DNA of 64,000 bases from Candidatus Nomurabacteria bacterium (GTDB lineage: Bacteria > Patescibacteriota > Patescibacteriia > HK-STAS-PATE-3). Under the pieces are notes generated by a model, which ran no database searches, was not told the origin of the DNA, and saw only the letters and a program-made list of their open reading frames with translations. The DNA lies in NCBI GenBank assembly GCA_023898465.1, contig CP060223.1, forward strand, positions 96,001 to 160,000, in the 5' to 3' direction. A program made the translations under genes and the position numbers. Positions 1 to 57,759 of the stretch are shown here, piece after piece (positions within the stretch are counted from its first letter, which is position 1; each line of letters starts with the position of its first letter).

Positions 1-2
1 TA

Positions 3-728
3 CTACGCCGCAAAGGCGTGGTCAGCATCGTGGTGTTATTGGCTCTGGCGATGAGCTACGGCGTGCTCTTAACTCAACCTTTTCTTTATCAGGCACGTGT
101 GGAGCTGCTTATTATTCAGCAGCAGTCAGAGAATCAAGATTTACTCTCTGCACTTCGCGCCACTGAACAGGTTGGTAAAGGCTTAGTTGATGTTATTAGC
201 ACCAGTTCATTCTTTGATAAGGTGCTGGCAACCGACTTTCCAATTACTGATGATTTCGGCACAAATCCGGAAGAGCGTCGCTTAGCTTGGCAAAAAACTG
301 CCCATGCATCTATTTCTCAGCAATCTGGAATCTTAACAGTCACCGTGCTGCACAAGAATAAAGAGCAGGCAGCGGTGATTGCCCGCGGCGTGGCGCAAGT
401 ACTTACCACCGAGAGTCAAGAGTTTCACGGTAAGGCAAATATCATTGTGAAGGTAGTAGATGATGTCTATACCAAGCAATGGCCTGTGCAACCAAACATT
501 CTTGGTACTACCGTAGCCGCGCTTTTCTTTGGCATCATTGCCGGTGTTGGAATTGTCGCCCTCCTTCCTTTGCCAAAAGCAAAAGAAGCCGCGCCAGCAA
601 TTCGTCGTACTGAAAATGATATGAGTGGAGCAGCGCCAAGTGCGCGAAAGACTTTGCATGAAATACGTATGAAGTCGACTCCGCCTCCGAGCCTACCGGG
701 CATCGATGAAGAGGAAGACGATCTCTAA
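3..728 (+). CDS. Polysaccharide chain-length determinant-like membrane protein (Wzz/CpsC-like). 5' end probably runs off the window, because the frame is open to nt 3.
   Basis: N-terminal TM followed by a PfLYqArveLLI motif typical of Wzz/CpsC, a long soluble segment, and a C-terminal TM (VAALFFGIIAGVGIVALLPLP). Reading frame is open from the window edge. GC is about 47%. Confidence 0.5.
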   Translation, partial: LRRKGVVSIVVLLALAMSYGVLLTQPFLYQARVELLIIQQQSENQDLLSALRATEQVGKGLVDVISTSSFFDKVLATDFPITDDFGTNPEERRLAWQKTAHASISQQSGILTVTVLHKNKEQAAVIARGVAQVLTTESQEFHGKANIIVKVVDDVYTKQWPVQPNILGTTVAALFFGIIAGVGIVALLPLPKAKEAAPAIRRTENDMSGAAPSARKTLHEIRMKSTPPPSLPGIDEEEDDL

Positions 729-861
729 CACGTCGTGCATTCTCAAGGGATGGAAGAGCTTCCATCCCGGAATGAGTGCGAGACCCGTACTCTGAACGTT
801 GACAATTGAACGTATCAGGACTGGTTCCTGCATACGACGAGATAAACTTGGAGGTTTCCGT

Positions 862-2085
862 ATGCGCTGTTTGACCATGGCGTTGTGCCTTTGGCTCATC
901 TTCGTGGCCAATGCGGCGCATGCAGGTGAGTATCAGAATCTCCGACCCGGTCCGCCGGTGTTGGAGCTGGGTGCGTTTTTCGCATCAACCTTTCCCGAAG
1001 CTCTACCACAGCTGCCAGCTGGCACGGTGGTAGCACACTTCCCGTGTCCGGTGCCGGCGACATTCGTGTTTGCCGATCGGAGTCTCCGCACCTACTCACT
1101 TCCGAGTGAGGCAAAGGTGGTGGCGACGGAGCTGCGTCGGGACGATGGTGGAGCGTACTACCAGTTGCTCTATCTCCTCTCGAATAAGCAGGCGAGCTAC
1201 GCGGAGCGATTCGCGTATCCGATCTGGCTGAATAGCGATCCGGTCTACGTCCCCAACAACACCAAACTCTTGGTATTGGAACGTGGTCCCGAGCAAGCGA
1301 CGGTTGTCACTTCTGCTCCTGTGACTGCGACACCGCAGCAGCAGGGTGAAGCGATCAAGACGACGCCGGTGGTGAGAAACACGCCCGTGTCCTCTGCGCC
1401 ATCGACTGGACGGGTTGAGGGTGAGCACATCATCCATCACCCCTTCATTCGCGGGCAGCTTGATTTGAGGACGGAGTTCCTCGGTGTGAAACCCGAGAAC
1501 ATCTTCACTCATCAAGTGATTCCATCGCTTTGGCTGAACCAACACCTTGGTTTGACCGGACGTTGGGAGCGGCACGAAGCGAAGGATCTCGATCCATCGC
1601 AGGGCTGGGGAGTCGGGCTCTGTTACCGGACAGCTCCTATACATCGATTGTCGGTCGAGTACGCTCGATTGACATTTGGTGAGATGAGTTCGTCCGGGCA
1701 AAGCATTCAGCTCGTGCATTTCGAATCCAGGCTACAAACCTGGTTCCTGCATCACGAGTTGGAAGCAGAGCAGCGGGATAACGACGCGAAGGAAGTTTGG
1801 ACTCGACTACGGTCGGGGCTTGCTTTCCAAGTCGGCTATCGTAGCCGGCTGCAGATGGGCGGAGAGTTAGCTAACCTGAACTACGAACTCGTAGCACAGG
1901 ACGGCTACTACTACGTGTCTGCACTTGGGACGCGCTTCAATCGATCTCACTACGGAGCATTTGCCAGCTTGGATACCCATCTGGGTGATCACTTCCCACT
2001 ACGACTTCTGGTCGGCGGCGGGAAGGGCAGTGTTCCAGAATGGAACTACATCAATGCCGAGCTGAGACTCGGAGTTGATTTCTGA
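862..2085 (+). CDS. Outer-membrane beta-barrel-like protein: signal peptide, N-terminal domain, Thr/Pro linker, C-terminal barrel ending ...LGVDF.
   Basis: ATG at 862 lies 8 nt after GGAGG. Signal peptide MRCLTMALCLWLIFVANAAHA. C-terminal Phe and alternating hydrophobic pattern. Paralogous to the protein at 4011-5207 (shared W-VGL-YR block). GC is about 60%. Confidence 0.6.
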   Translation: MRCLTMALCLWLIFVANAAHAGEYQNLRPGPPVLELGAFFASTFPEALPQLPAGTVVAHFPCPVPATFVFADRSLRTYSLPSEAKVVATELRRDDGGAYYQLLYLLSNKQASYAERFAYPIWLNSDPVYVPNNTKLLVLERGPEQATVVTSAPVTATPQQQGEAIKTTPVVRNTPVSSAPSTGRVEGEHIIHHPFIRGQLDLRTEFLGVKPENIFTHQVIPSLWLNQHLGLTGRWERHEAKDLDPSQGWGVGLCYRTAPIHRLSVEYARLTFGEMSSSGQSIQLVHFESRLQTWFLHHELEAEQRDNDAKEVWTRLRSGLAFQVGYRSRLQMGGELANLNYELVAQDGYYYVSALGTRFNRSHYGAFASLDTHLGDHFPLRLLVGGGKGSVPEWNYINAELRLGVDF

Positions 2086-2335
2086 TGTACGAATCCTGGC
2101 CACTTGGTCAGTACTCATAACTCGTCGGGTGGTCAGGAGATCCGTAAGGATTTCTACAAAAGGACCTAAGGGTCCGCGACCTGTGCCGAACGCACACGGA
2201 GGACAACATGCGAAAGCGTGCTCCGCCGACTATCTGATGAGCTTGTGTAACTGACCATGCCCCAATCAACTTGTTTGGGGCTAGGGATTAACCTGCCCCG
2301 ACAACAAAAAATTGGGGCAAGCCAAGGAGGAAGCC

Positions 2336-3625
2336 TTGTTCAAGCTTCGCATCAGCGCGATCTTCGCGCTTCTCATCCTTCTGGGTGCCGGTCTCTATGG
2401 CTGCGCTCAGGAGCCCATCGTGTTCCAGCCCGATCAGGATGTGCCGACCGATCAGCTGCCGGGCGATGGCACAGCCACGCTCAGTCTGCAGATCGGCGGC
2501 GTACCGGCCCAGCACAATGGAGGCGCTTCGAGTGCTTTCATGGTGACCAATACGGTGCAGGTGATCGGCAACATCTTCCTCACCGGTGACCGACTGGACA
2601 CCGAGTGGAAGATGCAGAACTGGAGCAGCGGCGATGTCCAAATCCAGACCATGAACGGTCGTTGGTATTCGGTCGCTCCTTCGGTCGACGGCAACGTCCA
2701 GATCACCAACTTCCTCATCAACGACATCCAGCCGCAGCATTTCGTGCAGCTGGATGAGATGAAGGGGATCTTCGCCCAGGTCAAGCTGTTGCCGGATTCG
2801 TCTGGCTTCCAGTTGTATCAGCTCGAAGACAACCGGGATCAGCTGATGACGGTGCACTACCGAGTCTACGATCCTGCCCCGGCTGACTTCCAGGGACTCC
2901 AGATCGTGGGAACTTCCACGAACTGGAATCAGATGTATCCGGAGGCGATCTACAGCTCCGACTACGGTATCTGGGAGTGGTGGGGTCCGGCGTTGAAGGC
3001 GAGCGGCAACAAGGTCGCTTTCCGGATTCGCGGAAGTGGGGCTCTGCCGACCTCGTATTTGATCACTGCCCAAGGCGAAGTGAACGGTACGCCGGTTGGT
3101 GAAGAGGTCCAGCTCGACTGTACGGAGTTGGTGGAGAACGTGAATACGTACTTCGCCAGCACGACCTGGTTCACCGACCGCGGTTGGTTGGCTGGGAAGC
3201 GAGTCTACCGACTCATCATCCACGAAGATGGTGGTATCGAACAGGGATGCGGAGGCATCCCGATTCAGACGACCATCTCGATCACGAACAACCGCATTCC
3301 GCAGGATCACCACCTGATGTGTGTCTACGACGGCTACAACGACAATCAGCCGTTCGAGATTCCTCGGGTGAGCGGCAAGTGGGAAACCACGCAGATCACG
3401 CTCCATTCTGGTCCGGCGGCTCTGTCGGTCTGGGATACGAGTGACGGAGACAAGCCGATCATCACCACGGTGAAGATCGGCAGCCAGGAAGTGAAGCACC
3501 TCGAAGTGTTTCAGGATCCTGGTTCGGAGCCGACGGTTCACTTCACCTTCGTCCTTGGCGAGGGTCCGACCCTGCAACAGGGGACGGACAATCGCACTGG
3601 TACGATCGGAGGAGAGAACTACTAA
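2336..3625 (+). CDS. Lipoprotein (lipobox LYGC) with a possible CBM/starch-binding-like segment.
   Basis: TTG start 6 nt after AGGAGG. Signal peptide plus LLGAGLYGCAQ lipobox. Segment QIVGTSTNWNQMY...WEWWGP...VAFRIRG resembles CBM20/48-type glycan-binding modules. Confidence 0.55.
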   Translation: MFKLRISAIFALLILLGAGLYGCAQEPIVFQPDQDVPTDQLPGDGTATLSLQIGGVPAQHNGGASSAFMVTNTVQVIGNIFLTGDRLDTEWKMQNWSSGDVQIQTMNGRWYSVAPSVDGNVQITNFLINDIQPQHFVQLDEMKGIFAQVKLLPDSSGFQLYQLEDNRDQLMTVHYRVYDPAPADFQGLQIVGTSTNWNQMYPEAIYSSDYGIWEWWGPALKASGNKVAFRIRGSGALPTSYLITAQGEVNGTPVGEEVQLDCTELVENVNTYFASTTWFTDRGWLAGKRVYRLIIHEDGGIEQGCGGIPIQTTISITNNRIPQDHHLMCVYDGYNDNQPFEIPRVSGKWETTQITLHSGPAALSVWDTSDGDKPIITTVKIGSQEVKHLEVFQDPGSEPTVHFTFVLGEGPTLQQGTDNRTGTIGGENY

Positions 3626-3663
3626 TCGCCAGCCCTGGGAACGCTGACGATTGCACATTCTTG

Positions 3664-3702
3664 CCCCGCCCGCTACAACACTTTGTGTTGAAGCGCGGCG
3701 GG
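3664..3702 (+). terminator. Rho-independent terminator.
   Basis: GC-rich hairpin ccccgcccgc...gcgcggcgggg followed by cTTTCTTTT. Confidence 0.6.
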
Positions 3703-3781
3703 GCTTTCTTTTACCTTGGCAGGATGGAAATGTAACTAGTCTTCAAGTTCTGATGTTTGTTGAAGCAATGTTTCGTAGGGC

Positions 3782-3810
3782 TTGACAAAATAGCACTTTT
3801 CCTGCTAAAG
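3782..3810 (+). promoter_or_regulatory. Sigma70-like promoter. Its -35 context gcTTGACAaaat is shared with the promoter at 7944.
   Basis: TTGACA at 3782 with a 17 nt spacer to cTAAAg. Confidence 0.4.
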
Positions 3811-4010
3811 TTCGCCGTTAACCAATGCGTAAAACCATCTAAAAAACGAACATTTTTACCACAACGACCTTAGTCGTTTGTGCTACTTATGGACATGAAT
3901 GGCTTGAGAAATGCCTAGCATTCCTCAACCGATTCTGGACCGGAAGTACTGCAGTAATTGTCATTCTTTGACAATTGAATTCAGAAGTCATTCTCACAGA
4001 GGAGGGTCTC

Positions 4011-5207
4011 ATGCGGACCTGGTATGTGGTTCTTGCGCTACTGGCGCTCGTCTCCTTTGGGTCCGCTCGGGCCCAGGTCATCGAAATCCCGATCGACTAC
4101 GTCGCGACGGATTCGGTGATTGCGAACTGGCCGCATCTCAACATCGGGGGCAACCCGGTGTACAAGAGCGGCTACCCGGCTGATTCCTTGGCAGTACATG
4201 CTGCTCGGGACGGCTGGTTCAAGACGACCTTCAACTTTCCCGTCGGGATCTACTGTCTCGATAAGGATGGGAAGATCATCAAGGGACGTGTCGAACCCGG
4301 ACAAACCATGAAGAATGGTGCCCGGGCCGATACGCTGATCGTGTCTATTCTAGCTGAGACGCCGGAGCAGACGCTGTATCAGATCCACGTTATTCAGGCG
4401 TGCGGTAACCCCGTGCTCTGGTCAGGCGTCGGTGTGTTGAAAGCACCGAAGCCGACTGGCCCACTGCCGCCGCCAACCCTGACTGTTCCGAAGCCCCCAG
4501 CACCACCTCCCATTGCGGAGACGGAGCCGCCGATCGTAGTAGAGCCTGAAAAACACTTCAGGCTACCGATCGATGGTTGGGCTGGAGTGGCAGGAAGTAA
4601 GTCACTCGAGTCCAAGGCTTGGTCGCTCTTCGAGGGCGTCTACATCGACTTTCCGTTGATCGTGGACAAGCTCACGTTCAAGTTTGGGGCGGCAACGTCT
4701 CAGGCAAACTACGAGAAGCTCCGTGGTCGGACGAGTTACCGAGGTGTTGGCGGCGATATGAGTCGCTGGCAAGTCGGCCTCTTCTACCGGCCTTGGGACA
4801 ACATCCAGGTTACCGGCCTGATTGGTCAGCAGTATGACCATAAGGCTGGCGACTGGCAGGATGGCGTCCAGCTGGAAGGAGTGCTGGGTTTCCCCATCGG
4901 TCGCTGGTGGAACGATGAGGATGTCAGCTACGGCACTACGACCAAAGCACTTTGGTTCCGCACTCGACATGCCTACAAGCTGTCGGGTGAAGGAATGCAT
5001 TGGTGGTCGATCGGCGGCGAGTTTGTCTATGACTCGTTCATGGACAACGATGGTCGATTCTACACTTCGCGCGTTCACGTATTTGGGAAGCGAGAGTTTC
5101 CCGGATTCTGGAATCGCGAGGCTGTCTTCATCTTCGGTGGCGGAAGAGGGAGTAAAGACGAGGCTTGGGGCCTCATAGCAGAACTAGGGCAGCGGCTCTG
5201 GTTCTAG
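4011..5207 (+). CDS. Outer-membrane beta-barrel-like protein, paralog of 862-2085; Pro-rich linker; ends ...GQRLWF.
   Basis: ATG lies 6 nt after GGAGGG. Signal peptide MRTWYVVLALLALVSFGSARAQ. PPPTLTVPKPPAPPP linker. C-terminal Phe. Motif RWQVGLFYR aligns with GWGVGLCYR of the paralog. Confidence 0.6.
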   Translation: MRTWYVVLALLALVSFGSARAQVIEIPIDYVATDSVIANWPHLNIGGNPVYKSGYPADSLAVHAARDGWFKTTFNFPVGIYCLDKDGKIIKGRVEPGQTMKNGARADTLIVSILAETPEQTLYQIHVIQACGNPVLWSGVGVLKAPKPTGPLPPPTLTVPKPPAPPPIAETEPPIVVEPEKHFRLPIDGWAGVAGSKSLESKAWSLFEGVYIDFPLIVDKLTFKFGAATSQANYEKLRGRTSYRGVGGDMSRWQVGLFYRPWDNIQVTGLIGQQYDHKAGDWQDGVQLEGVLGFPIGRWWNDEDVSYGTTTKALWFRTRHAYKLSGEGMHWWSIGGEFVYDSFMDNDGRFYTSRVHVFGKREFPGFWNREAVFIFGGGRGSKDEAWGLIAELGQRLWF

Positions 5208-5221
5208 AAGGGAGATTCCTG

Positions 5222-6385
5222 ATGCGTTTTCTCCGTTTCATGGCCGCTGCGCTGTTGCTGCTCGGTGCCTTCGGGTGCCAGAAGCTCCCCAGCGAGCCGA
5301 TCGACACCGGTGGCAGTCAGCCGCCGCAGGAGTACAACGGACCTGAGTCTGGTCTCGCGCTCAACTTCGAGCGTGGCGCCGGACAATACGAATTCGTTTC
5401 CGACATGTTCATCCATCAGGGTGGCGTGACGGATTGGGCGACTGTAACAGTCAACCCGGATAACTTCTTCCTCACCACCTACGCTGGACACTGGTATAGC
5501 GACATGCTGACCAGGGACGGTGTGCCGGTGCTGGGAGACTACACTCTGGCCGGTTCGACTCCGTCCAACTACTGGATGGATGAGAACCGCGGTGTTTTCG
5601 CGAGCCACATGGTTCTCGTCAGCGACGCTGACAGTGCCTGGGTCTGGCAGTGGCCCTCCAATGCCAGCCAGTTGGTCGACCTCGACATCGAGGTGCTCAA
5701 CTGGTCATCGGCAACGGATCTTGGCGTGGTCGGTACGCCGACGTGTTACGTCGTGCACCCGGCCATGTTGAACCACTTGCATGACAACGTCTACGGACGC
5801 TCGCTACGCCTCCTGCCCGGTGATGCCAAAATCGCTGTGATGGATATGTACGAGCGAGTTGGTCTGGGTGATGCAGTCACGGTCCGTATCAACGGCACCG
5901 AGCTGGTCGCCTACGTCGATGACTTCACGCATGACAACCAGCCGACGGTACATCGTTACTTCCGCTTTCACGTGAACGCGGATGGGACGGTGAGCTCGAT
6001 CGGTACTGAGAACCGATTCTCGTATGGGAACACGGTCTCGGTCAGCAATTCCAATATCGATCCCAGCGCTACGGTGTATCTCAACGGCACAGGCCTCACC
6101 AACGGTGAGATGATGCCGATGACCTATGTCGGCAGCTGGACCTGGCAGCTCACCGGTCTCACGACCTGGGTGGGCGAGCAGGATTTGAGGGTGAGTATGG
6201 AAGACGGGACTGGTGTGTTTCGTACCGTTCGCTTGAACGGAACGGAGTTGCACCACCTGGCTGCCGTGCCGCTCGACCCGGATCCTCCGATCCAGGTCTT
6301 CCGATGCACGCCCATGCATGACCACACGGTGATGCAGGGCGAGGACAACCGGGCCGCTGACATCGGCATGGAGACCGGCGGATGA
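5222..6385 (+). CDS. Lipoprotein (lipobox LGAFGC).
   Basis: ATG after AGAAGGGAG. Signal peptide MRFLRFMAAALLLLGAFGCQ. High GC. Confidence 0.55.
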   Translation: MRFLRFMAAALLLLGAFGCQKLPSEPIDTGGSQPPQEYNGPESGLALNFERGAGQYEFVSDMFIHQGGVTDWATVTVNPDNFFLTTYAGHWYSDMLTRDGVPVLGDYTLAGSTPSNYWMDENRGVFASHMVLVSDADSAWVWQWPSNASQLVDLDIEVLNWSSATDLGVVGTPTCYVVHPAMLNHLHDNVYGRSLRLLPGDAKIAVMDMYERVGLGDAVTVRINGTELVAYVDDFTHDNQPTVHRYFRFHVNADGTVSSIGTENRFSYGNTVSVSNSNIDPSATVYLNGTGLTNGEMMPMTYVGSWTWQLTGLTTWVGEQDLRVSMEDGTGVFRTVRLNGTELHHLAAVPLDPDPPIQVFRCTPMHDHTVMQGEDNRAADIGMETGG

Positions 6386-7869
6386 GCGAAGAAGGTGATG
6401 CGACAAGTCGTGAGGTGCCTCCCCAAGTAAGAGAGGTACTTCGCCAAATGCAACGAGTCGCGAAGAGAGATCGCAAAAAGAAGGCGAAGCATCGAGCCCG
6501 CAGAGAGGAACGGAAAAAACAGGCAAAGGCAAGAGTGAAAGCTCGAACGGGTGAGCAGTCAACAGGTTCTCCAAGGAAAGGAGATGAACCTCGTCGTCCT
6601 GTTCCGCCGCCTCAGCCTGCACCAAGTGCTTCGCCGTCCTACGCATCTCTACTGGGAGATAAGCTTGGGGGAATTCCTCAAGTAAGACGAAATCCGAAGA
6701 GAGCAGAAACAAACCTGGGAGGCTCGCCGAGCTTCCCCCAAGATGAGGAGGGTCATGTAATGCCCGAGGTGTCCATGCGCGAAGAAGGAGGATCGAGGAA
6801 GCTTTTGATTGCCACTGTGGCGATCTTGTGCGTCCTCTTGGTCGGGGTGCTGATCTACACGCATCCCTGGAGTCCTCAGCAAGGTCTGACGGAGACCGAG
6901 GTGTCGGATATGATCAGGGAGTTCGCTGATCAGATGCCGGCTCCGGTCGCTGAAATCCCCGATGACGTGGTACGCAAGGGTGACCTTGCTTCGATGCAGC
7001 CGGCGGCGATCACTCTCAGCGCTTTCGACGAGACCTATCTCGATACGCTGTGGGCGACGGTCAAGGATCCGGTGACCGGGAAGATCGACTCGACGATGGT
7101 CGTGAAGACCCGGACGAGGAATCCCATCACTGATTTGCAGAAGGACGTGAAGAGTACCAATGCCGAGGCTCGTGCAGCCAAGGTTGCGGCACGGAATGCG
7201 GAGAAGCGTCTCAAGGAGACGCCGACCCAATTCGCCGTGACCGTGCCTTCGACTTCCACATCGACTTCGCTTCACCAGCCTGGTGGAGTGCAGTTGGGTG
7301 GTACCACGACCACGACGGCGCCTGTGCAGATGACGACTCGAACGAGTACGCAAGCCGGGCTGGTGGCTGGTACGATCGGAGGTGGTTCGCCGCCCCCGCC
7401 GCCGGCTAGCAACGTCGCTGTGTCCATGACTACCACGATGGTTCCGGCCGGTGAACAGGTGATGGGTGGGGACGGCTTGATGAAGCAGGGTCCGGCCGTT
7501 GCCTTTGTCTACAACGGTCAGACCTACGTTCGTCGGGATCTGGTGCAGCGCAACAAGTACGGCGACCCGATCAACCCCAGTCGAGCTGACCAGAACTTCT
7601 ACGTGATGGCCGGCGAGCAGGGGATGAACTGGAAGCTCGTCAATCCGGCCAAGCAGAAGATGACGGTCCAGGGCGACTATTTGGTCTGGCCTGGCGTGAT
7701 CAAAGGTCCTTTCCAGGTCGGCTGGGTGGATCCGAACGACCCGGCCTACATGCCTGAAAGTGGCGTAGTCTGGGCTCCGATCGCTGAGTTCTACTCCGGC
7801 TACGACGGGACCTTCTGTCGTGACCCCGACTATCAGTTGAGGGCTGTGGCGATCCAGCAGATGCCGTAG
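6382..7869 (+). CDS. Membrane-anchored protein with a Lys/Arg-rich N-terminal tail, one TM, a Thr-rich linker and a conserved C-terminal domain shared with 8047-9225. An alternative start exists at 6760.
   Basis: ATG at 6382 overlaps the upstream stop. An in-frame ATG at 6760 has a very good GGAGGG RBS. TM LLIATVAILCVLLVGVLIY. C-terminal about 120 aa shares ~45% identity with the 8047 protein. Confidence 0.55.
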   Translation: MSEEGDATSREVPPQVREVLRQMQRVAKRDRKKKAKHRARREERKKQAKARVKARTGEQSTGSPRKGDEPRRPVPPPQPAPSASPSYASLLGDKLGGIPQVRRNPKRAETNLGGSPSFPQDEEGHVMPEVSMREEGGSRKLLIATVAILCVLLVGVLIYTHPWSPQQGLTETEVSDMIREFADQMPAPVAEIPDDVVRKGDLASMQPAAITLSAFDETYLDTLWATVKDPVTGKIDSTMVVKTRTRNPITDLQKDVKSTNAEARAAKVAARNAEKRLKETPTQFAVTVPSTSTSTSLHQPGGVQLGGTTTTTAPVQMTTRTSTQAGLVAGTIGGGSPPPPPASNVAVSMTTTMVPAGEQVMGGDGLMKQGPAVAFVYNGQTYVRRDLVQRNKYGDPINPSRADQNFYVMAGEQGMNWKLVNPAKQKMTVQGDYLVWPGVIKGPFQVGWVDPNDPAYMPESGVVWAPIAEFYSGYDGTFCRDPDYQLRAVAIQQMP

Positions 7870-7897
7870 TCCGCGACTGCAACGTTCTTTACTTCAA

Positions 7898-7936
7898 CCC
7901 CCGCTATATCTACGGATGTAGCGGGGCTTTCTTTTT
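7898..7936 (+). terminator. Rho-independent terminator.
   Basis: Hairpin ccccgctatatctacggatgtagcgggg followed by cTTTCTTTTT. Confidence 0.7.
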
Positions 7937-7943
7937 ACTATGC

Positions 7944-7972
7944 TTGACAAAATGCCAAAAATAGCATACTAT
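7944..7972 (+). promoter_or_regulatory. Sigma70 promoter.
   Basis: TTGACA, 17 nt spacer, TACTAT. Confidence 0.55.
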
Positions 7973-8046
7973 AGCCGGTTCTTTTTGCACCTCACAATCT
8001 AGTTACACAAGCGAGAGACACTACACATCCCAACCGGGAGGACTAC

Positions 8047-9225
8047 ATGCTCCAACGTTTCTTTGCGTGGTCTTTGCTGGCGCTCTTCGCCTTCGGCTGT
8101 GCCGGAGGTAGTGCCACGCTGAAGCAGCATCAGCAGCCCGTCGGGCAGGTCTACGTGGGCGACTGCGTGCCGTCGGATGGCATTCATCCGACTGGCTACC
8201 TTCGCCTGACCAAGCCGCCGGAGGACTTCAACTCGATGCTGTCGATGTGGCACGCTGTTCAGGCCGAGGGTTCATCCGAGCCCTCGAAGATCGAGGTCGA
8301 CTACATCCGGGTCTACGCCCACGTAGCCGGCCGCGATTCACTGCTCGACAGCGACGAGTACAACGACATGATCGGGGACGGAGGTCTCTATCTTCGTCAT
8401 CCCTCGTGGTTCTACAACGATGACCATACGAGTCTGCCCTGCGAGTTCGACATGGTCAACGGTTACTTGGTCTTGCGACCGAGCGACTACCCGGATCGAG
8501 TCTTTCACTGGTGGAATTCCTACCATCCAGCGGAGGATGTCTGGCGTGTCACTATTCCGGCCGGTGCTACCAACTGCTGGGCAGAGACTCGGATTCGGAT
8601 TACGGGTCCAGCCTATGTCCAGGGCGGCATTGACTACTGGCGTTCACTCACTGCTCCGTACGGCGGCGTCGAAGTGAACAACCGGGAAGCCTGCATGTCC
8701 AACTGGACTTGCTCGGCTGATCCGGGTTGGCAGACCATCGTGGTTGGTAAGGACAAGCCGCAGGGCGACAGCGCTGTGGTCGATGCCGATGAGAACGGGA
8801 AACCGAAAGTCGTCCAGGCTCCGGTCTACGATCCTTTCGAGAGCAAGGCCGACGGTCTCCTCAAGAAAGGCGCTGCTGTCTGTTTTGTACAAGACGGACG
8901 CACCTACTTCCCGAAGGAGATCGTGGCGACGAACAAGTACAGCGATCCGGCTCGCCCCAAGAATGGCAAGTACTACTTGCTGGGCGGGGTGAAGCCATGG
9001 GCTATCGCCGGCGACGATCAAGAGCTCCGGGAAAACGGGGATTACCTCTACTATCCCGGCGTGGTCGACAAGGTGTGTCAGGTGGGCTGGGAGGATCCGG
9101 CCGACGCTTCGGCCGATCCGTCCGGAACCGTATGGAGCGCTTCAGCGGAACTTTTCTCGGGTCGCCCGGGATCAGTTTCGAAGAACGGTCAGTACGGCTA
9201 CCTGCCAGTCAATCTCTCCAACTAG
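8047..9225 (+). CDS. Lipoprotein carrying the same C-terminal domain as 6382-7869.
   Basis: ATG lies 7 nt after GGGAGG. Lipobox LFAFGCAG. C-terminal block GLLKKGAAVCFVQDGRTY...NKYSDP...GDYLYYPGV...QVGWEDP...GTVW...AELFSG aligns with the 6382 protein. Confidence 0.6.
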   Translation: MLQRFFAWSLLALFAFGCAGGSATLKQHQQPVGQVYVGDCVPSDGIHPTGYLRLTKPPEDFNSMLSMWHAVQAEGSSEPSKIEVDYIRVYAHVAGRDSLLDSDEYNDMIGDGGLYLRHPSWFYNDDHTSLPCEFDMVNGYLVLRPSDYPDRVFHWWNSYHPAEDVWRVTIPAGATNCWAETRIRITGPAYVQGGIDYWRSLTAPYGGVEVNNREACMSNWTCSADPGWQTIVVGKDKPQGDSAVVDADENGKPKVVQAPVYDPFESKADGLLKKGAAVCFVQDGRTYFPKEIVATNKYSDPARPKNGKYYLLGGVKPWAIAGDDQELRENGDYLYYPGVVDKVCQVGWEDPADASADPSGTVWSASAELFSGRPGSVSKNGQYGYLPVNLSN

Positions 9226-9334: not shown

Positions 9335-11107
9335 ATGTTACGCAATATTCTTGTCATTCTCGGACTCGCCATTTCACTCACCAGCTTCACGCCAAAGCAG
9401 GAGAGTCGCGATGGCGTGTATGCGTTTACCACGCCTCCTTTAAGTATTGGTCAAGGAGTGGTGGTGACAAATGATGGCATTGTGATTGGCGATGGCGTGA
9501 CTGATTCCCGGCAAGGAATACAGGAGCTGCTTAGTGGTGATGACTTGGAACATTTTCTTGACCAAAGCTCTCAGCAGTTTGATGCCGTAGAGCTGCGTAT
9601 CTGGACATGGTTCCTGGGTCAAAACGATTTTACTATTGGCACGGTGAATAATTTCCTTGCCCGTGCTCATGCCCACGGCTTGCAAGTGTACTTAAATACT
9701 TGGGAATATCCTGGCACACATCCCGACCTTCTGCCTGCTGAGTATCAGGCATATAAACTTGCTGACACCGGACAACGCGTGCCGGCCCTAGTGAATGATG
9801 GACAAATCAGCGCGCAGCACATTGATAAAGCAAACCCCGCTGCACTGGAATGGATGAGTGGGCAACTGCGGAGTGCGCTGACTTCTTTTGACGTTTTCGA
9901 TGGATACCTCATTGTTGAGGATAGGGTTTCCGATTGGGTGCATGGGTCTTTCCCACAGTATGTACGTTATTGGGATTCACCGACCTATTCCGATGCAGCG
10001 CTTGATTCATTTCAACATTATCTCCTACTGCATGGTCAGGATGCAACACAGCGATTCCCAGTGGATCGTCCGGAGTTAGTTTCTCAATTCACCCAGTATG
10101 TTCCTTCAGCCCCAGAAAGTGCTTTATGGAAGTATTGGTATCAATGGCGCTTTGAACTTTTTGCTGACTATGTGGAGAGTCTGAGTAATGCGGTGAAGTC
10201 AGTGCAAAGGGTGCCAGTGCTTTACATGCCTTGGCAACGTGTGGTGGATGAATTTGATTACGCCTACGCTGATGATTGGTCAGCCAATCGTTGGGATGTT
10301 GGATACGGTCCGGGCAATCCCGAGAATGCCATCTTCGGCGTCTCGCTTCACACCCTGGCAAAACGCGGATCAATTGATGCCTACGTGCATGAATTTGGAG
10401 AGGATGGTACGCATGAGCTCTGGCCAATGTCTTTTAATGCGCTGCAGTTAGAAAAAGCCAAAATTGCTTTGTCAGATTCTTATGTTACCCTAGGCAGCTT
10501 TATTCAATTTTTTAATTACGAAGGTAGAGAAATAGTTTCCCCTGAACTACTTCAAGATGCCTTAGCCATCGGACGGCAAAACGAGGCAAAGATTTTTGTA
10601 GCTTACGATGTTGCCACACTGTATGATCGTTCAGGTCGCTATGATGCACATACCTCAGCGCTTTGGCAGCAAGCAAGAACACATGCATATGCCATTGATG
10701 AAGAGGAAATCCGAAACGCAAGTCAGCTAGCGCCAGCGCAGGTTTTTGCTCGAAAATTACCTGAACAGATTCCAGAAGGAGTGGCCGCCTGGACTGCCGA
10801 TGATGGGTATGTGTATGTGCGGACCGAGGCTCTGCCCGGTAACGGACCATACTATGTCGTATACGATCACTGGAATGCACCACTACTTGATGCGCAGCAC
10901 CTTATGGAATACTATCCAGAGCATGGTTTAGTCGCTATACATGCTGATGGGTTAAAAGGCGCTGCTTTTCAAATCATTACTCCGGGACCGCAGGGTAGCG
11001 TCGCGTGGTCAGAAATTCGTGAACAGCTTTGTGAGCTGGGGTATCAAGGGATCGTATGTAGCCCAAATAGTTGGCTTTATCAACCAGTGGGGCTTCATTC
11101 CATGTAG
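9335..11107 (+). CDS. Secreted hypothetical protein, 590 aa, possibly a glycoside-hydrolase-like TIM barrel.
   Basis: Signal peptide MLRNILVILGLAISLTS. No family recognised with confidence. GC about 50%, intermediate between the island and the host. Confidence 0.5.
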   Translation: MLRNILVILGLAISLTSFTPKQESRDGVYAFTTPPLSIGQGVVVTNDGIVIGDGVTDSRQGIQELLSGDDLEHFLDQSSQQFDAVELRIWTWFLGQNDFTIGTVNNFLARAHAHGLQVYLNTWEYPGTHPDLLPAEYQAYKLADTGQRVPALVNDGQISAQHIDKANPAALEWMSGQLRSALTSFDVFDGYLIVEDRVSDWVHGSFPQYVRYWDSPTYSDAALDSFQHYLLLHGQDATQRFPVDRPELVSQFTQYVPSAPESALWKYWYQWRFELFADYVESLSNAVKSVQRVPVLYMPWQRVVDEFDYAYADDWSANRWDVGYGPGNPENAIFGVSLHTLAKRGSIDAYVHEFGEDGTHELWPMSFNALQLEKAKIALSDSYVTLGSFIQFFNYEGREIVSPELLQDALAIGRQNEAKIFVAYDVATLYDRSGRYDAHTSALWQQARTHAYAIDEEEIRNASQLAPAQVFARKLPEQIPEGVAAWTADDGYVYVRTEALPGNGPYYVVYDHWNAPLLDAQHLMEYYPEHGLVAIHADGLKGAAFQIITPGPQGSVAWSEIREQLCELGYQGIVCSPNSWLYQPVGLHSM

Positions 11108-11135
11108 GGAGTTCTTTGTCAGAGGAGGAGTGAAT

Positions 11136-11600
11136 ATGCAGTGGAGGTTGTGGATCTACGTGTTGGCTTGCGTACTGTGCGCATCGCAGTCTGCGTACGG
11201 TCAGTCTGAGCAATTCCAGCCAATGTACAGCATAGCGCCAGAGTATCCACTTTCAGCGTGGATTGCTGGTGAGTCTGGGTCGGTGATGGTGGGAATGCAG
11301 ATTGACCCGGTCGGCCGTGTGGAGGAGGTCTGGGTTCAGTCTTCAACAAGCTCGTTGTTTGAGCGGTATGCGCTCGAGGCGGCGAAGCAGTGGGTTTTTG
11401 TACCGATCATGCCCATGGTGGATCTGATCGACGCGGTGGATGGCGTTATGGTCTTGCGTAGAATTCCGGAGCTTGAAACAGCGAGTTACCTGGAAACACA
11501 TCCGGGAATCATTGACAGTCTCGTCTACGAGTGGACGGAAAAACAGGACCAACCGTCCCCGGTCCGTAGCGTCAGTATCCCTTTCAATTTCAACCACTAA
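11136..11600 (+). CDS. TonB C-terminal-domain protein, short form.
   Basis: ATG 7 nt after AGGAGG. Signal/anchor MQWRLWIYVLACVLCASQSAYG. Block SIAPEYPLSAW..GESGSVMVGMQIDPVGRVEEVWVQSS..LFERYALEAAKQWVFVP matches the TonB_C fold signature (PxYP...G.V.v.f.id..G.v.dv.v..S....LD.aAl.av..w.f.P). Confidence 0.5.
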   Translation: MQWRLWIYVLACVLCASQSAYGQSEQFQPMYSIAPEYPLSAWIAGESGSVMVGMQIDPVGRVEEVWVQSSTSSLFERYALEAAKQWVFVPIMPMVDLIDAVDGVMVLRRIPELETASYLETHPGIIDSLVYEWTEKQDQPSPVRSVSIPFNFNH

Positions 11601-11832: not shown

Positions 11833-12221
11833 TAACTTAAGAAATCAAGGTAAATGCCAATAAGAATGGCCAGTGTTGAAGAGGTAAATATGACAATATA
11901 GTTCCAGCGTTCTTTCGATGAGCCAAGCGTTGTAAAGATATAACGCATTGCAGATCGCTCTTCCTCTGATAGGTTATCAAGTGATTGAATACGTTCAGCG
12001 AGCTTATATTCAGCAATGACACGCGCTCTTTTTTTCGCAACTTGGTAACGATGCAAAAAATAGAGCACAAAACCGACCGTACCAAAATACCAGACCACTT
12101 GCACCCAAACTGTTCCGATATTGTTCAGTACAATAATACTGCGATAGGCGATGGTGGCAAGTATGCCTATCCAAAAAAAGAGTAAGCGAAGTCCTGCCGA
12201 ATGAGGTTTCAAGGTTTCCAT
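11832..12221 (-). CDS. Membrane protein, hypothetical (3-4 TM).
   Basis: ORF with several hydrophobic helices, adjacent to the flavodoxin gene. Confidence 0.4.
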   Translation of the reverse strand: METLKPHSAGLRLLFFWIGILATIAYRSIIVLNNIGTVWVQVVWYFGTVGFVLYFLHRYQVAKKRARVIAEYKLAERIQSLDNLSEEERSAMRYIFTTLGSSKERWNYIVIFTSSTLAILIGIYLDFLS

Positions 12222-12700
12222 TACTTGCTGTTTGCTTTATCTAGTACATGTGTAGCCCAGGCCTGTACACGCTGACGATTTTTATCCAAATCGTAGAAAT
12301 AATGAAGCAGCCGAAGTGTTGCGCCTATCTTTTTTCCACCTACATCAGTAACCAATTTTTCGAGGTGGTCAGCAGCCGCGCAAGTTTCTTGATACGATTC
12401 GTCACCTAATCCGTAGACAGCAAAATTTTGCTTATGCAAGGAGACGCCATGAAGTTTTTCAACCAGTTCCCGCATATGTTGTTGCAGTTGACCTTCTAGA
12501 CGTTTACCATCTTCAGTAATATGTTCCCAGGTACAGGAGCCTAGGAAAACAAAATCCGGCTGGCGAAGCTCCTCTGCTTGTACAGAATCGGCCCGGCGGA
12601 TATGTACGGTGTGTCCAGCTTCTTGCCAGACTGATGCGATTTGTTTGGCCACGTCCAGCGTGCCGCCGGAATTCGTGCCATAGACAATGAAAACCTCCAT
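12221..12700 (-). CDS. Flavodoxin, short-chain.
   Basis: MEVFIVYGTNSGGT... C-terminal portion of the 232 aa six-frame ORF. The N-terminal part of that ORF overlaps the tRNA and is not coding. Confidence 0.75.
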   Translation of the reverse strand: MEVFIVYGTNSGGTLDVAKQIASVWQEAGHTVHIRRADSVQAEELRQPDFVFLGSCTWEHITEDGKRLEGQLQQHMRELVEKLHGVSLHKQNFAVYGLGDESYQETCAAADHLEKLVTDVGGKKIGATLRLLHYFYDLDKNRQRVQAWATHVLDKANSK

Positions 12701-12792
12701 ATATATATAGTGTACGGTATTTTCTCGCATTCGGCTACTGTAGGATGTTGTAAAAAAGAAAAAGAACGGACACATAGCCCATTCTTTTTCTT

Positions 12793-12867
12793 TGGCTCCG
12801 GGGACAGGGATCGAACCTGCGACCAAGTGGTTAACAGCCACCTGCTCTACCACTGAGCTACCCCGGA
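12793..12867 (-). tRNA. tRNA-Asn (anticodon GTT).
   Basis: Reverse complement TCCGGGGTAGCTCAGTGGTAGAGCAGGTGGCTGTTAACCAC...GGTTCGATCCC...CCCCGGAGCCA. Anticodon loop CTGTTAA. CCA is encoded. A promoter (TTGCCA, 17 nt spacer, TACACT) lies on the minus strand at 12883-12919. Confidence 0.9.
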
Positions 12868-13047
12868 ATACACCCACTTGAACGAAGCCTAGTGTAGCGT
12901 GCTCAGCCTTTCTTGGCAACTATAGGCTTGAAAGAATAAGGCATTGACAAATGTATCATATATAGTATGATGGAATTGCTTGTTAGCTCTTTGCATCAAC
13001 GAGACACGTTGTTCGGCAAAGCTGACATCTAGAAAAAGGAGTATGAG

Positions 13048-16411: not shown

Positions 16412-16492
16412 ACCTGCATTCTGTCTTAGCTGAGCAAAAAGAACAAGTCAAGCTTCCTTGACAGCAGGGTGATGCTACAGTAGGCTCTGAAT

Positions 16493-16700
16493 ACGCACAT
16501 TAGTATCTCACTTCATAGATGAGGAACTCCGGTGAAAATCCGGGGCACTGCCGGTACGGTATCCTACCTTCGCTAAAGCTATGGTGGGGAGCCCGATACT
16601 CAGCTATGTTGTTTCAATCGTTCTTCCTCCGAGCAGAGGACAAGGCGTGCAAGTGCACTGTGCGTTATGACTTCTGCTCGAAACAGAAGTTTTATTCTTA
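16493..16700 (+). ncRNA. Candidate cobalamin (B12) riboswitch leader ending in an intrinsic terminator.
   Basis: Promoter TTGACA(16458), 17 nt spacer, TAGGCT. Leader contains gAGGAActCCGGTGAAAATCCggggCactGCCggtACGGTA, which resembles the B12-element core. Terminator acttctg-ctcgaaa-cagaagt followed by TTTTATTCTT at 16670-16700. The downstream gene is DUF4430. Confidence 0.45.
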
Positions 16701-16712
16701 TCTCAAAAAAGT

Positions 16713-17555
16713 ATGCGAGTATTTCAGGTATTCTTGTTTGTCCTCATGATGAGTTTCAGTTTGCCCGTAGTGGCGCAGACGAGCGCTCCTCAAGTAAATG
16801 TAAGAGTTGAATCCGCGGATTCCACCTTGTTCAATAGTTCGGTGCTGGTCGACGCCTGTACGGTGACTGATACCAGTGGAGATGTGCATGAGTATGCTGC
16901 TGGCGCAGGAGTTTGTGCAATGGTGGCAGCGGCCGATCAAGCGGGAATCAGCTACAGTTTTCAAAATTTTGATTTTGGTCTTTTGTTGGCTGCGGTGAAT
17001 GGTGTAGATAATGGAACTGATGAAAACTGGATCTATTGGGTGAATGATAAGGCGGCAACAGTTGGGATGACAGACTATGTATTGCAAGAAGGTGATGAGT
17101 TTCTATTAGCGTACGTGCCCTGGACTGCCTCACCACTTCGCTTAACGCTTGAAGAAAGTGCAACACAGGCAGGTGAAGCTATCGCGCGGGTGACTGCGTA
17201 TTCGATTGATGATGATGCTTTTCTCCCAGTCGATGGAGCAAAGGTGAAGGTAGGAGAAGTCGAGGGTGTAAGCAACGCAGCTGGTGAAGTAACCCTGCGA
17301 GCAAGTGCAGCTGGTCGCTATATGGTGCAAGCGGAAAAAGAAGGATATGTCCGCAGCACTATGCAAGATTTTCATCCAGAGGATGTTGCGACAGATGCCG
17401 AATCTGATGAAGAAGGTGTAGTGGTGCTCAGCTCAGCCGATGCTACGGCCTCAGAGTCTGATCAATTCTCTACTACGCAAAGAACCGTGCTTTGGTTAGC
17501 CGGAATCGGCGTCCTACTTGCCTTTAGTATTGGCTTTTTCCGTCGAAACGGATAA
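16713..17555 (+). CDS. DUF4430-family surface protein (B12-binding BtuG-like family) with a C-terminal TM anchor.
   Basis: Signal peptide. Core ...LVDACTVTD...ENWIYWVNDKAATVGMTDYVLQEGDEFLLAYV matches the DUF4430 signature (W.Y.VNg..a.vG...Y.l.dGD.i.f.Y). C-terminal hydrophobic anchor. Confidence 0.6.
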   Translation: MRVFQVFLFVLMMSFSLPVVAQTSAPQVNVRVESADSTLFNSSVLVDACTVTDTSGDVHEYAAGAGVCAMVAAADQAGISYSFQNFDFGLLLAAVNGVDNGTDENWIYWVNDKAATVGMTDYVLQEGDEFLLAYVPWTASPLRLTLEESATQAGEAIARVTAYSIDDDAFLPVDGAKVKVGEVEGVSNAAGEVTLRASAAGRYMVQAEKEGYVRSTMQDFHPEDVATDAESDEEGVVVLSSADATASESDQFSTTQRTVLWLAGIGVLLAFSIGFFRRNG

Positions 17556-17600
17556 GGGTTTGGTCAGGGCAGTATCAACTTGATATACTGATACTGCCCT

Positions 17601-18599
17601 ATGACCACCTTATCAAAAAACGAACAGGGGATACTCGCCACCTTGGCATATTTTGATGTATTTGATTATCCTTTGCGTGAAGAGGAAATACTGCGCTGGT
17701 TTTACGTCACCTCTCCAAGCGAGCATTGGGAAAAGTCGACCGTCCAAGAAACCCTACGACACAGTCAGGCTTTGTCCGAGTATATTGAGCAGCGTGAGGG
17801 TTGGTATACCTTAAAACATCGAGGTCAGCTCATTGAACGTCGAGTTCAGCGAAGGAGGATAAGTATGCGAAAATGGCGAATCGCTCGTTTTGCTACTCGC
17901 TTGCTTCGGGTTATTCCTTTTATTCGCATGGTGGCGGTTTGCAACACGCTGGCTTTAAATAATGCCAGAGAAGAGAGTGACATTGATTTTTTCATTATTG
18001 CGCGTCAGGGTCGTATGTGGACCATGCGTTTCCTCACAACGACCCTGCTTGATTTTGCTCGCATACGGCGCAAGGGCGCGGCGATTAAGGATAAAATTTG
18101 TCTGAGTTTCTATGTAACTGACGCGGCTATGAATTTGGAGCCTTTGCGTTTGCAGCCGGTTGACCCGCACTTTGTGTATTGGGCTGATCAGTTTGTCCTG
18201 TTGTATGACACTGCCGCAGTGTTTCAGGACTACCAGCAGGCGAATGTCTGGGGCAAGCAATATTTGCCCTTTGCCTTTTCTCAGTCTTCCCAGCCACAGA
18301 TACGAGATACCTTATTGACCAGCATGATGAAGCAAAGCGCGGAGTGGATTTTAGGTGGGCGTATTGGCGATTGGTTTGAGAAGTTCTTCCGTCGCATTCA
18401 GCTGCGCAAGATGGATCGGAATGTGCATAGCCGAGCATGGGAGAATGACAGTCAGGTGATTATCTCTGACAACATCCTCAAATTTCATGAGCAAGATCGA
18501 CGCGAAGAATATCGCCGTCTTTTTGAAGGCCGCTTATGGGAAATTTTGCGCAAGCCACGACCCGTAGTAGGGGAAGAGCATAGACCGCCTTTGGAGTGA
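17601..18599 (+). CDS. Hypothetical protein with a nucleotidyltransferase-fold-like motif.
   Basis: CNTLALNNAREESDIDFFII resembles the pol-beta NTase G[SG]..(D/E)h(D/E)h motif. No confident family assignment. Confidence 0.45.
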   Translation: MTTLSKNEQGILATLAYFDVFDYPLREEEILRWFYVTSPSEHWEKSTVQETLRHSQALSEYIEQREGWYTLKHRGQLIERRVQRRRISMRKWRIARFATRLLRVIPFIRMVAVCNTLALNNAREESDIDFFIIARQGRMWTMRFLTTTLLDFARIRRKGAAIKDKICLSFYVTDAAMNLEPLRLQPVDPHFVYWADQFVLLYDTAAVFQDYQQANVWGKQYLPFAFSQSSQPQIRDTLLTSMMKQSAEWILGGRIGDWFEKFFRRIQLRKMDRNVHSRAWENDSQVIISDNILKFHEQDRREEYRRLFEGRLWEILRKPRPVVGEEHRPPLE

Positions 18600-56886: not shown

Positions 56887-57759
56887 TTGGCTTTTCAGGG
56901 GGAACAACCAGGGGAGAATGACAATACAAAGCTTTTCAATAATGCCCCAGAGCAAGGTAATCAGGTTCCGCCTGAGCAAAGTGGCTCGCGGGGCTTTTTT
57001 ATTGCGTTAATTTCCTTTGGCGCAGTTGGGCTTTTGCTCGGAATTGTGAGCTTGGCAAAGAATATTCAGTCACCTTTTGTACCAAATGCCAACCTCATTG
57101 CGGTGCAGCAGGACACCAATCAAGAAAACATCTCTGATTTGCAGCAAAGAGACACGGATGGAGATGGGTTAAGTGATTACGAAGAACTTTATCAATACAA
57201 CACTAGCCCGTATTTAGCTGATTCTGACTCGGATACCATTGATGATAAGAAAGAAATCGAGAGTGGAAACGATCCGAATTGTCCAAGTGGCCAGGATTGT
57301 ACCGGATTAGGCGTAAATACAAACACGAGTACAGTTGACGATGCATTGGGGCTTACTAATAGCTCCACCAATACATCCGCGACAAATACCAGTACGAGCA
57401 CGAGTGCGGTTGATATGGCACAGTTGCGTGAAGTGTTAAAGGCCTCGGGTGCTCCTGCCTACGTCGTGGATTCAACCGATGATGCTACTTTGCTTGAGCT
57501 TTACAACGAATTAGTAGCTGAGCAGGGTGGTGACTCGCTTGATACCAACTCGACAGATACAAATGCGAGTAACACGTCGACTGTTGATGACGCTACCACC
57601 TTACAACTTCTGCAAAGCTTATCAGCCAGCGAGATACGCGCACTTCTCATTCAAAGTGGCGTTGATCAATCATTAATCGATCAAGTAGACGATTCTGAGC
57701 TGCAGCAAATATTCCTTGATGCAGTGCAATCCGAGTTTTCCTCTGACTCCTCATCATGA
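56887..57759 (+). CDS. Secreted/anchored acidic Ser/Thr/Asp-rich protein with a thrombospondin-type-3-like Ca-binding repeat.
   Basis: TTG start. TM FFIALISFGAVGLLLGIV. DTDGDGLSDYEELYQYNTSPYLADSDSDTIDD. Confidence 0.5.
   Translation: MAFQGEQPGENDNTKLFNNAPEQGNQVPPEQSGSRGFFIALISFGAVGLLLGIVSLAKNIQSPFVPNANLIAVQQDTNQENISDLQQRDTDGDGLSDYEELYQYNTSPYLADSDSDTIDDKKEIESGNDPNCPSGQDCTGLGVNTNTSTVDDALGLTNSSTNTSATNTSTSTSAVDMAQLREVLKASGAPAYVVDSTDDATLLELYNELVAEQGGDSLDTNSTDTNASNTSTVDDATTLQLLQSLSASEIRALLIQSGVDQSLIDQVDDSELQQIFLDAVQSEFSSDSSS

Follow-up and report, generated by a model that had tools for sequence, protein, structure and literature searches.

The stretch of DNA analysed here, hereafter the window, comprises 64,000 nucleotides of contig CP060223.1 (positions 96,001 to 160,000, forward strand) from a metagenome-assembled genome (MAG) of a Candidatus Nomurabacteria bacterium, a member of the Patescibacteria. 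Between the divergently oriented dnaG and a gene conserved in related genomes, its forward strand carries a leader followed by a gene for a 280-residue protein with a DUF4430 domain (Table 1). A preliminary description of this DNA regarded the leader as a candidate cobalamin riboswitch that controls a surface protein, and it is this leader, together with the cassette that it forms with the gene, that is examined here.

Table 1. Parts of the leader, of the gene that it precedes and of the gene product; positions are those of the window or, for the product, residue numbers.
Feature	Position	Strand	Basis or remark
Putative promoter	16459..16487	+	read from sequence
Predicted cobalamin (adenosylcobalamin, AdoCbl-type) riboswitch aptamer, including P13 hairpin	16497..16650	+	RF01482 match
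P1, 5′ strand ACUUCAUAGAU	16510..16520	+	pairs with AGCUAUGUUGU at 16602-16612 (Rfam alignment)
GAGGAA junction	16521-16526	+	read from sequence; 5′ of the GGUGAAAAUCC hairpin
Hairpin C-UCCGG/CCGG-G, loop inside the conserved GGUGAAAAUCC motif (16531-16541)	16527..16545	+	Rfam alignment
P5 mini-hairpin ACU-GCC-GGU, loop = L5	16547..16555	+	Rfam alignment
P6 (CGG/CCG) and short extension hairpin	16557..16595	+	Rfam alignment, minimum free energy (MFE) fold
B12 box GAGCCCGAUACUCAGC	16589..16604	+	aligns to the AAGUCAGGUCUUU region of the RF01482 model
P13 hairpin, upper stem UCCUC/GAGGA	16619..16647	+	Rfam alignment; folds alone at -7.8 kcal/mol
Antiterminator hairpin	16630..16680	+	MFE fold of full leader; -25.7 kcal/mol folded singly
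Intrinsic terminator, stem GACUUCUG/CAGAAGUU (16669-16691), loop CUCGAAA, U-rich tail UUAUUCUUAU	16669..16700	+	terminator scan; -7.7 to -8.2 kcal/mol folded singly
Regulated gene, 280 residues	16713..17555	+	open reading frame (ORF); Pfam DUF4430
Product: signal peptide	~1-22		
Product: DUF4430/transcobalamin-beta-like domain	~27-140		
Product: immunoglobulin-like (Ig-like) domain	~142-220		
Product: acidic linker			disordered in model
Product: C-terminal transmembrane helix	254-279		
12-bp hairpin AGGGCAGUAUCA/UGAUACUGCCCU closing the cassette	17566..17600	+	read from sequence; directly before ATG 17601

End-to-end alignment with an AdoCbl aptamer model

Covariance models of 4227 Rfam families were run against both strands of the window, at the gathering scores and then at permissive E-value thresholds. 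In the permissive scan, the AdoCbl aptamer model RF01482 aligns end to end (model positions 1-149 of 149) with 16497-16650 (+), at E = 1.1e-04 for the whole window and all families and at E = 7e-07 in a 401-nt scan, and this is the sole non-tRNA match with E < 0.01 in the whole-window search. The aptamer core without P13 (16497-16616) scores 33.1 bits against 43.5 bits for the full match, so that the P13 hairpin is worth about 10 bits.

The consensus architecture of RF01482 is complete, from P1, the GGAA junction and the GGUGAAAAUCC hairpin through P5, P6 and the B12 box to P13. Every aligned pair of P3/4, P5 and P6 is standard, and the GGUGAAAAUCC hairpin, all five pairs of which are standard and aligned with maximal posterior probability, is seen also in the MFE and centroid folds of the RNA. 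The extension of P6 is a hairpin in which CCUACC (16563-16568) pairs with GGUGGG (16583-16588), and the loop of P13 (L13), CGAGCA (16630-16635), is similar to the consensus CGAGGCA. Indeed, the core motifs of a B12 element that the preliminary description had recognized by eye, namely GAGGAA, GGTGAAAATCC (16531-16541) and CACTGCCGGTACGGTA (16546-16561), all lie where it had reported them.

The RF01482 type, which belongs to clan CL00101, is exemplified by the solved AdoCbl riboswitches of Thermoanaerobacter tengcongensis and Symbiobacterium thermophilum. The window element resembles it over P1, the junction, the GGUGAAAAUCC hairpin, P5, the short P6 extension, the B12 box and the 3′ P13, and its expression platform relies on P13, as does the kissing-loop mechanism known from these riboswitches; unlike these examples, its host is known from a Patescibacteria MAG. 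RF00174, which represents the classic element found ahead of btuB and cob genes, has the core, the B12 box and the regulatory logic in common with it; the P2 hairpin and the large peripheral extension of P6 that belong to that model are absent from the window element.

Promoter, expression platform and translation start

Downstream of the aptamer, the terminator hairpin is followed by TTATTCTTAT, which ends 12 nt ahead of the ATG at 16713. In the MFE fold of the full leader, CGAGCAGAGG (16630-16639), which comprises the loop and 3′ arm of P13, pairs with CUUCUGCUCG (16671-16680), which lies in the 5′ arm of the terminator, to form an antiterminator whose inner helix encloses the conserved loop AGUGCAC. 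This hairpin overlaps, and mutually excludes, both P13 and the terminator, and the layout of the three is the classic arrangement of a ligand-OFF transcriptional switch. The structure exclusive with the terminator that the preliminary description had proposed looking for is hence the MFE fold of the leader itself. Compared with shuffled controls, the leader is moderately more structured (z-score -2.4).

The promoter is less clear. A perfect -35 hexamer TTGACA (16459-16464) is separated by 17 nt from a weak -10 hexamer, TAGGCT (16482-16487), which keeps 3 of the 6 consensus positions, and an alternative extended -10-like element, TGcTACAGT, lies at 16474-16482; a consensus promoter scan returned no sigma-70 promoter under its criteria. 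The sigma-70 promoter of the preliminary description was overstated. Transcription would start at about 16489-16495. The -35 hexamer also overlaps a perfect palindrome, GTCAAG-cttc-CTTGAC (16447-16462), situated in the divergent intergenic region between dnaG and the riboswitch, which was scored by the terminator scan as a terminator-like site on the minus strand and could be an operator.

The start codon lies in an unstructured, A-rich stretch 12 nt past the U-tail, and there is no Shine-Dalgarno sequence ahead of the ATG at 16713, as had been noted earlier. However, groES, dnaG, rpoD, leuS and most of the other well-identified genes of the window likewise lack one; because this is the norm here, the absence says nothing about the mechanism, and the significance formerly attached to it was overstated. 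An ORF of 76 codons runs across the leader (16519-16749) and was considered as a coding alternative, but stops and indels interrupt its frame in the related contig L001 described below, so that the leader is taken to be non-coding. A long-range pairing of 7 bp between ACGCACA (16493-16499) and UGUGCGU (16659-16665) was also set aside, as chance alone should produce one such match in a leader this long; its 5′ partner may moreover lie upstream of the transcription start.

A membrane-anchored protein with a transcobalamin-like domain

The product of the gene matches Pfam DUF4430 (PF14478) over residues 69-134, with 32.9 bits against a cut-off of 23.8, and shows a weak match to the Ig-like family CarboxypepD_reg. 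A profile built from 20 members of the family matches the C-terminal (beta) domain of transcobalamin-2 (E = 4.7e-05). The AlphaFold model (mean predicted local distance difference test, pLDDT, 80.4; about 76-94, mostly 87-94, over the two domains) shows an N-terminal signal helix, a beta-grasp domain, an Ig-like sandwich, a linker and the C-terminal helix 254-279, in agreement with the earlier claim of a surface protein with a C-terminal anchor. The best match of a Foldseek search against the PDB is the transcobalamin beta domain 5no0 (template-modelling score 0.70, probability 1.00), followed by haptocorrin, intrinsic factor and the DUF4430 structure 3u7z from R. gnavus (the entries include 4kki and 3kq4). 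The sequence profile and the predicted structure therefore concur that the DUF4430 domain has the fold of the transcobalamin beta domain.

Bacterial transcobalamin-like SLBB proteins that carry signal peptides and Ig-fold domains have been described in organisms without B12 synthesis and were predicted to be surface scavengers of B12 (Burroughs et al., 2007; PMC1796856). The most likely role of the window protein is the capture of external B12 for a bacterium unable to make it, and the protein would be expected to bind the vitamin. Like these SLBB/DUF4430 proteins, of which R. gnavus RUMGNA_00854 (3u7z) is one, it combines a signal peptide, beta-grasp and Ig-fold domains and attachment to the surface; unlike them, it is anchored by a C-terminal transmembrane helix and not by an LPXTG motif, and its cassette, which would be monocistronic, has no alpha/alpha-toroid partner and no adjacent transporter of the CbiO/CbiQ or BtuFCD type. 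The best structural matches of its domain are the C-terminal beta domains of human transcobalamin, intrinsic factor and haptocorrin, and an isolated transcobalamin beta domain has been crystallized with cyanocobalamin, according to the title of PDB entry 5np4. In contrast to the human carriers, with which it shares about 20% sequence identity, the window protein lacks the alpha domain that provides the other half of the binding site.

Conservation of the proposed switch in a second lineage

Close relatives of the DUF4430 protein are very few: an identical copy lies on Logan contig L002, and P0002, which is 47% identical and in which the MR... start of the protein is conserved, is encoded on the 1.7-kb contig L001. 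A word-index protein search retrieved only the protein itself and P0002, a search with a trimmed profile of six sequences brought no more than three distant proteins and no orthologous leader, and a scan of GTDB genomes with a five-sequence profile yielded only locus L003 and an uninformative archaeal fragment, L004.

Pairs were counted between the window and L001 from structure-anchored coordinates, as the MAFFT alignment places the 3′ strand of P6 one column off. DNA identity with L001 is 71% from the B12 box to the terminator and 58% in the coding sequence. Within the leader, a B12-box segment of 17 nt (GGGGAGCCCGATACTCA), the top of P13 with L13 (14 nt, CCTCCGAGCAGAGG), the loop region of the antiterminator (GTGCACTGTG) and the strand shared by antiterminator and terminator (TGACTTCTGC) are identical. 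The six pairs of the P6 extension are all kept through one two-sided and two one-sided changes, and the closing pair of P13 is U-A in the window and G-U in L001. The same antiterminator hairpin forms in L001 (-22.1 kcal/mol), and its terminator, in the corresponding position, differs in the 3′ arm and has an improved U-tail, UUGUUUUGUUUUU (-8.4 kcal/mol). As far as the two sequences can tell, the keeping or compensation of the parts of the switch between these lineages points to purifying selection on it.

DUF4430 homologues as recurrent riboswitch targets

Loci of more distant homologues were chosen through protein similarity alone and then scanned for riboswitches. A canonical cobalamin riboswitch (RF00174) was found in three of the four informative loci: directly upstream of two tandem DUF4430 genes in L020 (96.7 bits), directly upstream of the homologue in L021 (77.3 bits) and, in L003 (36.6 bits, with a cut-off of 31.5), upstream of a two-gene operon in which the homologue is the second gene. 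The fourth, L019, has no riboswitch, and L004 is cut at the gene and uninformative. These elements, together with the homology of the domain to the transcobalamin beta domain, bear out the earlier assertion that DUF4430 genes are recurrent targets of cobalamin riboswitches.

The L003 operon (1458-4143) deserves mention in its own right. Its riboswitch is followed by a gene of 469 codons, whose product gives a weak match to an alpha/alpha-toroid family (SQHop_cyclase_N), and then by the DUF4430 homologue. It looks like a transcobalamin split over two genes, the first of which recalls the transcobalamin alpha domain, and it supplies between riboswitch and DUF4430 gene the partner that is missing from the window.

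Proposed mechanism and alternative explanations

Taken together, these results support the preliminary description and make it highly probable that the leader is a genuine cobalamin riboswitch of a minimal AdoCbl type, which terminates transcription ahead of the gene for a surface B12-capture protein. In terms of classification, window positions 16497-16700 (+) very probably belong to clan CL00101, with RF01482 as the closest model, and control a single gene. Without ligand, the nascent RNA would form the antiterminator and the polymerase would read into the gene (ON). Once the P3-P6 junction and the B12 box are occupied by AdoCbl, or by a corrinoid related to it, P13 would be held, presumably through docking of L13 on L5; the 3′ half of P13 would then be unavailable and the antiterminator could not nucleate, so that the weak terminator would form and transcription would stop 12-20 nt before the start codon (OFF). 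The protein made in the ON state would be exported and anchored by its C-terminal helix on the outer face of the membrane, with the DUF4430/SLBB domain borne on the Ig-like stalk, and its synthesis would be repressed once the cell has enough B12. Here we infer both the identity of the ligand and the later crossing of the membrane by B12.

Several observations weigh against this interpretation. At the gathering scores, the Rfam scan of the window returns two tRNAs and no cobalamin element. The RF01482 match falls 6.5 bits short of the curated cut-off of 50 bits, and RF00174 also remains below its own, 31.5 bits, probably because the P2 hairpin and the large P6 periphery are absent (its exact score is hidden by same-clan suppression). 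The two models named for checking in the preliminary description thus both fall below their thresholds, while the match to RF01482 is full-length and statistically significant. In the Rfam alignment, 8 of the 11 pairs of P1 are standard and the remaining three are mismatches (U-U twice, A-G once), and P13 has 10 of 11, the non-standard pair lying in the lower stem. The presumed loop-loop contact between L5 and L13 could draw on a complementarity of 2-3 bp only (UGC, 16549-16551, with GCA, 16633-16635, or GC with GC), and L001 lacks L5. The low score, the mismatched P1, the short L5 complementarity and an L13 that is one nucleotide shorter set the element apart from RF01482. The terminator is modest, with 8 bp of which 3 are G-C, and has an interrupted U-tract; a hairpin with U-tail is present as the preliminary description had it, but 'canonical' was too strong a word. 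As to comparative evidence, L001 is the only other lineage found with the gene and starts within P6, so that the 5′ half of the aptamer is missing from it, and with this single, partial comparator the covariation rests on a handful of pairs. A search of metagenome DNA with the pattern GAGCCCGATAC-N(10-40)-CCGAGCAGAGG gave eight loci, all of them chance matches in coding DNA without GGTGAAAATCC upstream. Finally, Pfam scans of the main ORFs of the window (the 2046-residue ORF and a few shorter ORFs were left out) detected no B12 importer, of the btuFCD type or any other, no B12-dependent enzyme or adenosyltransferase and no further B12 gene. The absence of btuFCD genes next to the cassette had been reported before; these 64 kb reveal no B12-dependent enzyme or transporter that would attest a need of the cell for B12.

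Other explanations were weighed. A genuine riboswitch of the cobalamin clan might prefer methyl- or aquocobalamin, or another cobamide of the host community, to AdoCbl, with the control mechanism unchanged. The selectivity classes of the clan differ in just the peripheral elements that are reduced here to a single short P6 extension without a large peripheral domain, and scores below both cut-offs make the element atypical for either seed; on the other hand, no model scores better than that for AdoCbl, to which the element aligns from end to end, P13 included, and the sequence holds no positive sign of a different ligand, so that such a preference is considered unlikely. It is improbable that the leader is a decaying, ligand-unresponsive remnant, carried in with the DUF4430 cassette, and that the gene is constitutive through a dominant antiterminator. 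The sub-threshold score, the mismatches of P1, an antiterminator about 10 kcal/mol more stable than P13 and terminator combined, and the recent, lineage-specific insertion of a cassette that six relatives lack would suit a relic. Nevertheless, a thermodynamically dominant antiterminator is normal in kinetically controlled riboswitches, and the B12 box, the top of P13, both strands of the antiterminator and the terminator are identical or compensated in L001 despite 47% protein identity.

Many cobalamin riboswitches act on translation, and the weakness of the terminator (-8 kcal/mol) with its interrupted U-tract would fit a switch that acts mainly on translation or mRNA stability and not on transcription termination. 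There is, however, no Shine-Dalgarno sequence to sequester, the start codon stands clear of the U-tail in its unstructured surroundings, and the hairpin with its U-tail and the matching antiterminator are both conserved in L001, which renders this mode of action very improbable. Least of all can the resemblance be credited to chance, in which case the RNA would be a common structured 5′ leader or attenuator that has a terminator and no connection with B12. The empty scan at curated thresholds and a fold z-score of only -2.4 would allow it, but a match whose E-value over the entire window and all families is 1.1e-04, on the right strand and directly upstream of the gene for a homologue of a B12-binding domain, is hard to reconcile with coincidence, as are the canonical cobalamin riboswitches carried by relatives of that gene and the perfect conservation of the B12 box in L001.

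Genomic setting of the cassette

The cobalamin riboswitch proposed here and its gene are followed by a gene of 332 codons (17601-18599, +), whose product is identical to a protein of a Candidatus Nomurabacteria MAG (locus tag H6760_00480). This neighbour protein has no Pfam match and more than 850 homologues, essentially all in Patescibacteria, which some sources name 'predicted nucleotidyltransferase', and its gene is syntenic with dnaG and groES-groEL. A synteny walk through six relatives with the neighbour gene found neither the leader nor the DUF4430 gene in them, and hence no additional leaders. In four of them (neighbour protein 52-61% identical) the order is rpoD-dnaG / neighbour-groES-groEL without the DUF4430 gene, in the fifth dnaG adjoins the neighbour gene, and the sixth has other upstream genes. 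The cassette is present in L001, whose neighbour protein, with 162 of 218 residues identical, is nearer to that of the window than any other. Since six relatives lack the cassette and L001 has it, leader and gene together represent an insertion specific to this lineage, placed between dnaG and the neighbour gene.

The hairpin that closes the cassette, between the DUF4430 stop codon and the next ATG, has no U-tail and holds a TATACT box (17584-17589) in its loop and 3′ arm. L001 has a hairpin of 8 bp at the same place (~1001-1036), with compensatory changes, and in the relatives without the cassette a TATACT box is equally far from the ATG of the neighbour gene, which it precedes by about 11-13 nt, a spacing that suggests a near-leaderless neighbour transcript. 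The hairpin would mark the 3′ end of the cassette transcript, contain the promoter of the neighbour gene, or both. Because the TATACT box is shared with relatives that lack the cassette, the neighbour gene probably keeps its own promoter, and the cassette would be monocistronic.

How B12 might pass from the captured state into the cell is a matter of conjecture. A membrane-anchored transcobalamin beta-half on an Ig-like stalk, governed by a minimal riboswitch, might form the entry of a B12 route that works without BtuFCD, ECF-CbrT or BtuM and might even take the vitamin straight from the surface of a host cell, a possibility that we put forward with considerable doubt. An exporter-fold ATP-binding cassette (ABC) half-transporter (ABC_membrane and ABC_tran domains) is encoded at 32447-34192 (+), at a distance of 16 kb from the riboswitch. 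An exporter-type ABC fold is also that of BacA, the B12 importer of mycobacteria, and one may speculate that the half-transporter supplies the uptake step that is missing.

Novelty and significance

The class of RNA, the mechanism and the class of target protein are all known already, so that the riboswitch of the window is not a new kind of element, and the understanding of how cobalamin riboswitches act and what they control is left unchanged. What is new is the instance: sub-threshold and unannotated, located in a Patescibacteria genome, and joined with its gene in a compact cassette without an adjacent transporter. The literature searched contains no description of a native cobalamin riboswitch in Patescibacteria, the candidate phyla radiation (CPR) or Parcubacteria. 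As the curated thresholds of Rfam miss this element, riboswitches may be under-counted in the reduced and fast-evolving genomes of Patescibacteria. The switch also flags one surface protein as a probable B12-capture device and thereby opens a concrete and testable way into the vitamin dependence of a bacterium that is uncultivated and probably depends on a host. If the transporter-independent route were true, native riboswitches and vitamin piracy in ultrasmall bacteria would have been systematically overlooked, the RNAs lying below threshold. From a practical standpoint, regulatory parts for the engineering of Patescibacteria are wanted by researchers (PMC11665869), and a compact native terminator under ligand control could serve as one.

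Other features of the window

The first 10,000 positions of the window differ from the rest in base composition, with a G+C content of 0.53-0.58 against 0.40-0.49 elsewhere, and no Pfam family matches its long ORFs (18-9225 and 9335-11107); this part may have a foreign origin or form a block of surface-protein genes that evolve fast. Unexpectedly for a Patescibacteria genome, positions 11019-11600 (+) encode a protein with a TonB C-terminal domain (E = 3.2e-11). The ORF of 2046 codons mentioned above lies at the end of the window (57756-63896, +). The leucyl-tRNA synthetase (50614-54198, +; 1194 residues) carries an alpha/beta-hydrolase domain (Abhydrolase_1/6, Ser_hydrolase; residues ~250-450), which follows the initial portion of the catalytic core and precedes the editing domain. 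As listed, the flavodoxin ORF (12221-12919, -) overlaps a tRNA at 12796-12867, and its true start is probably the internal MEVFIVYG...

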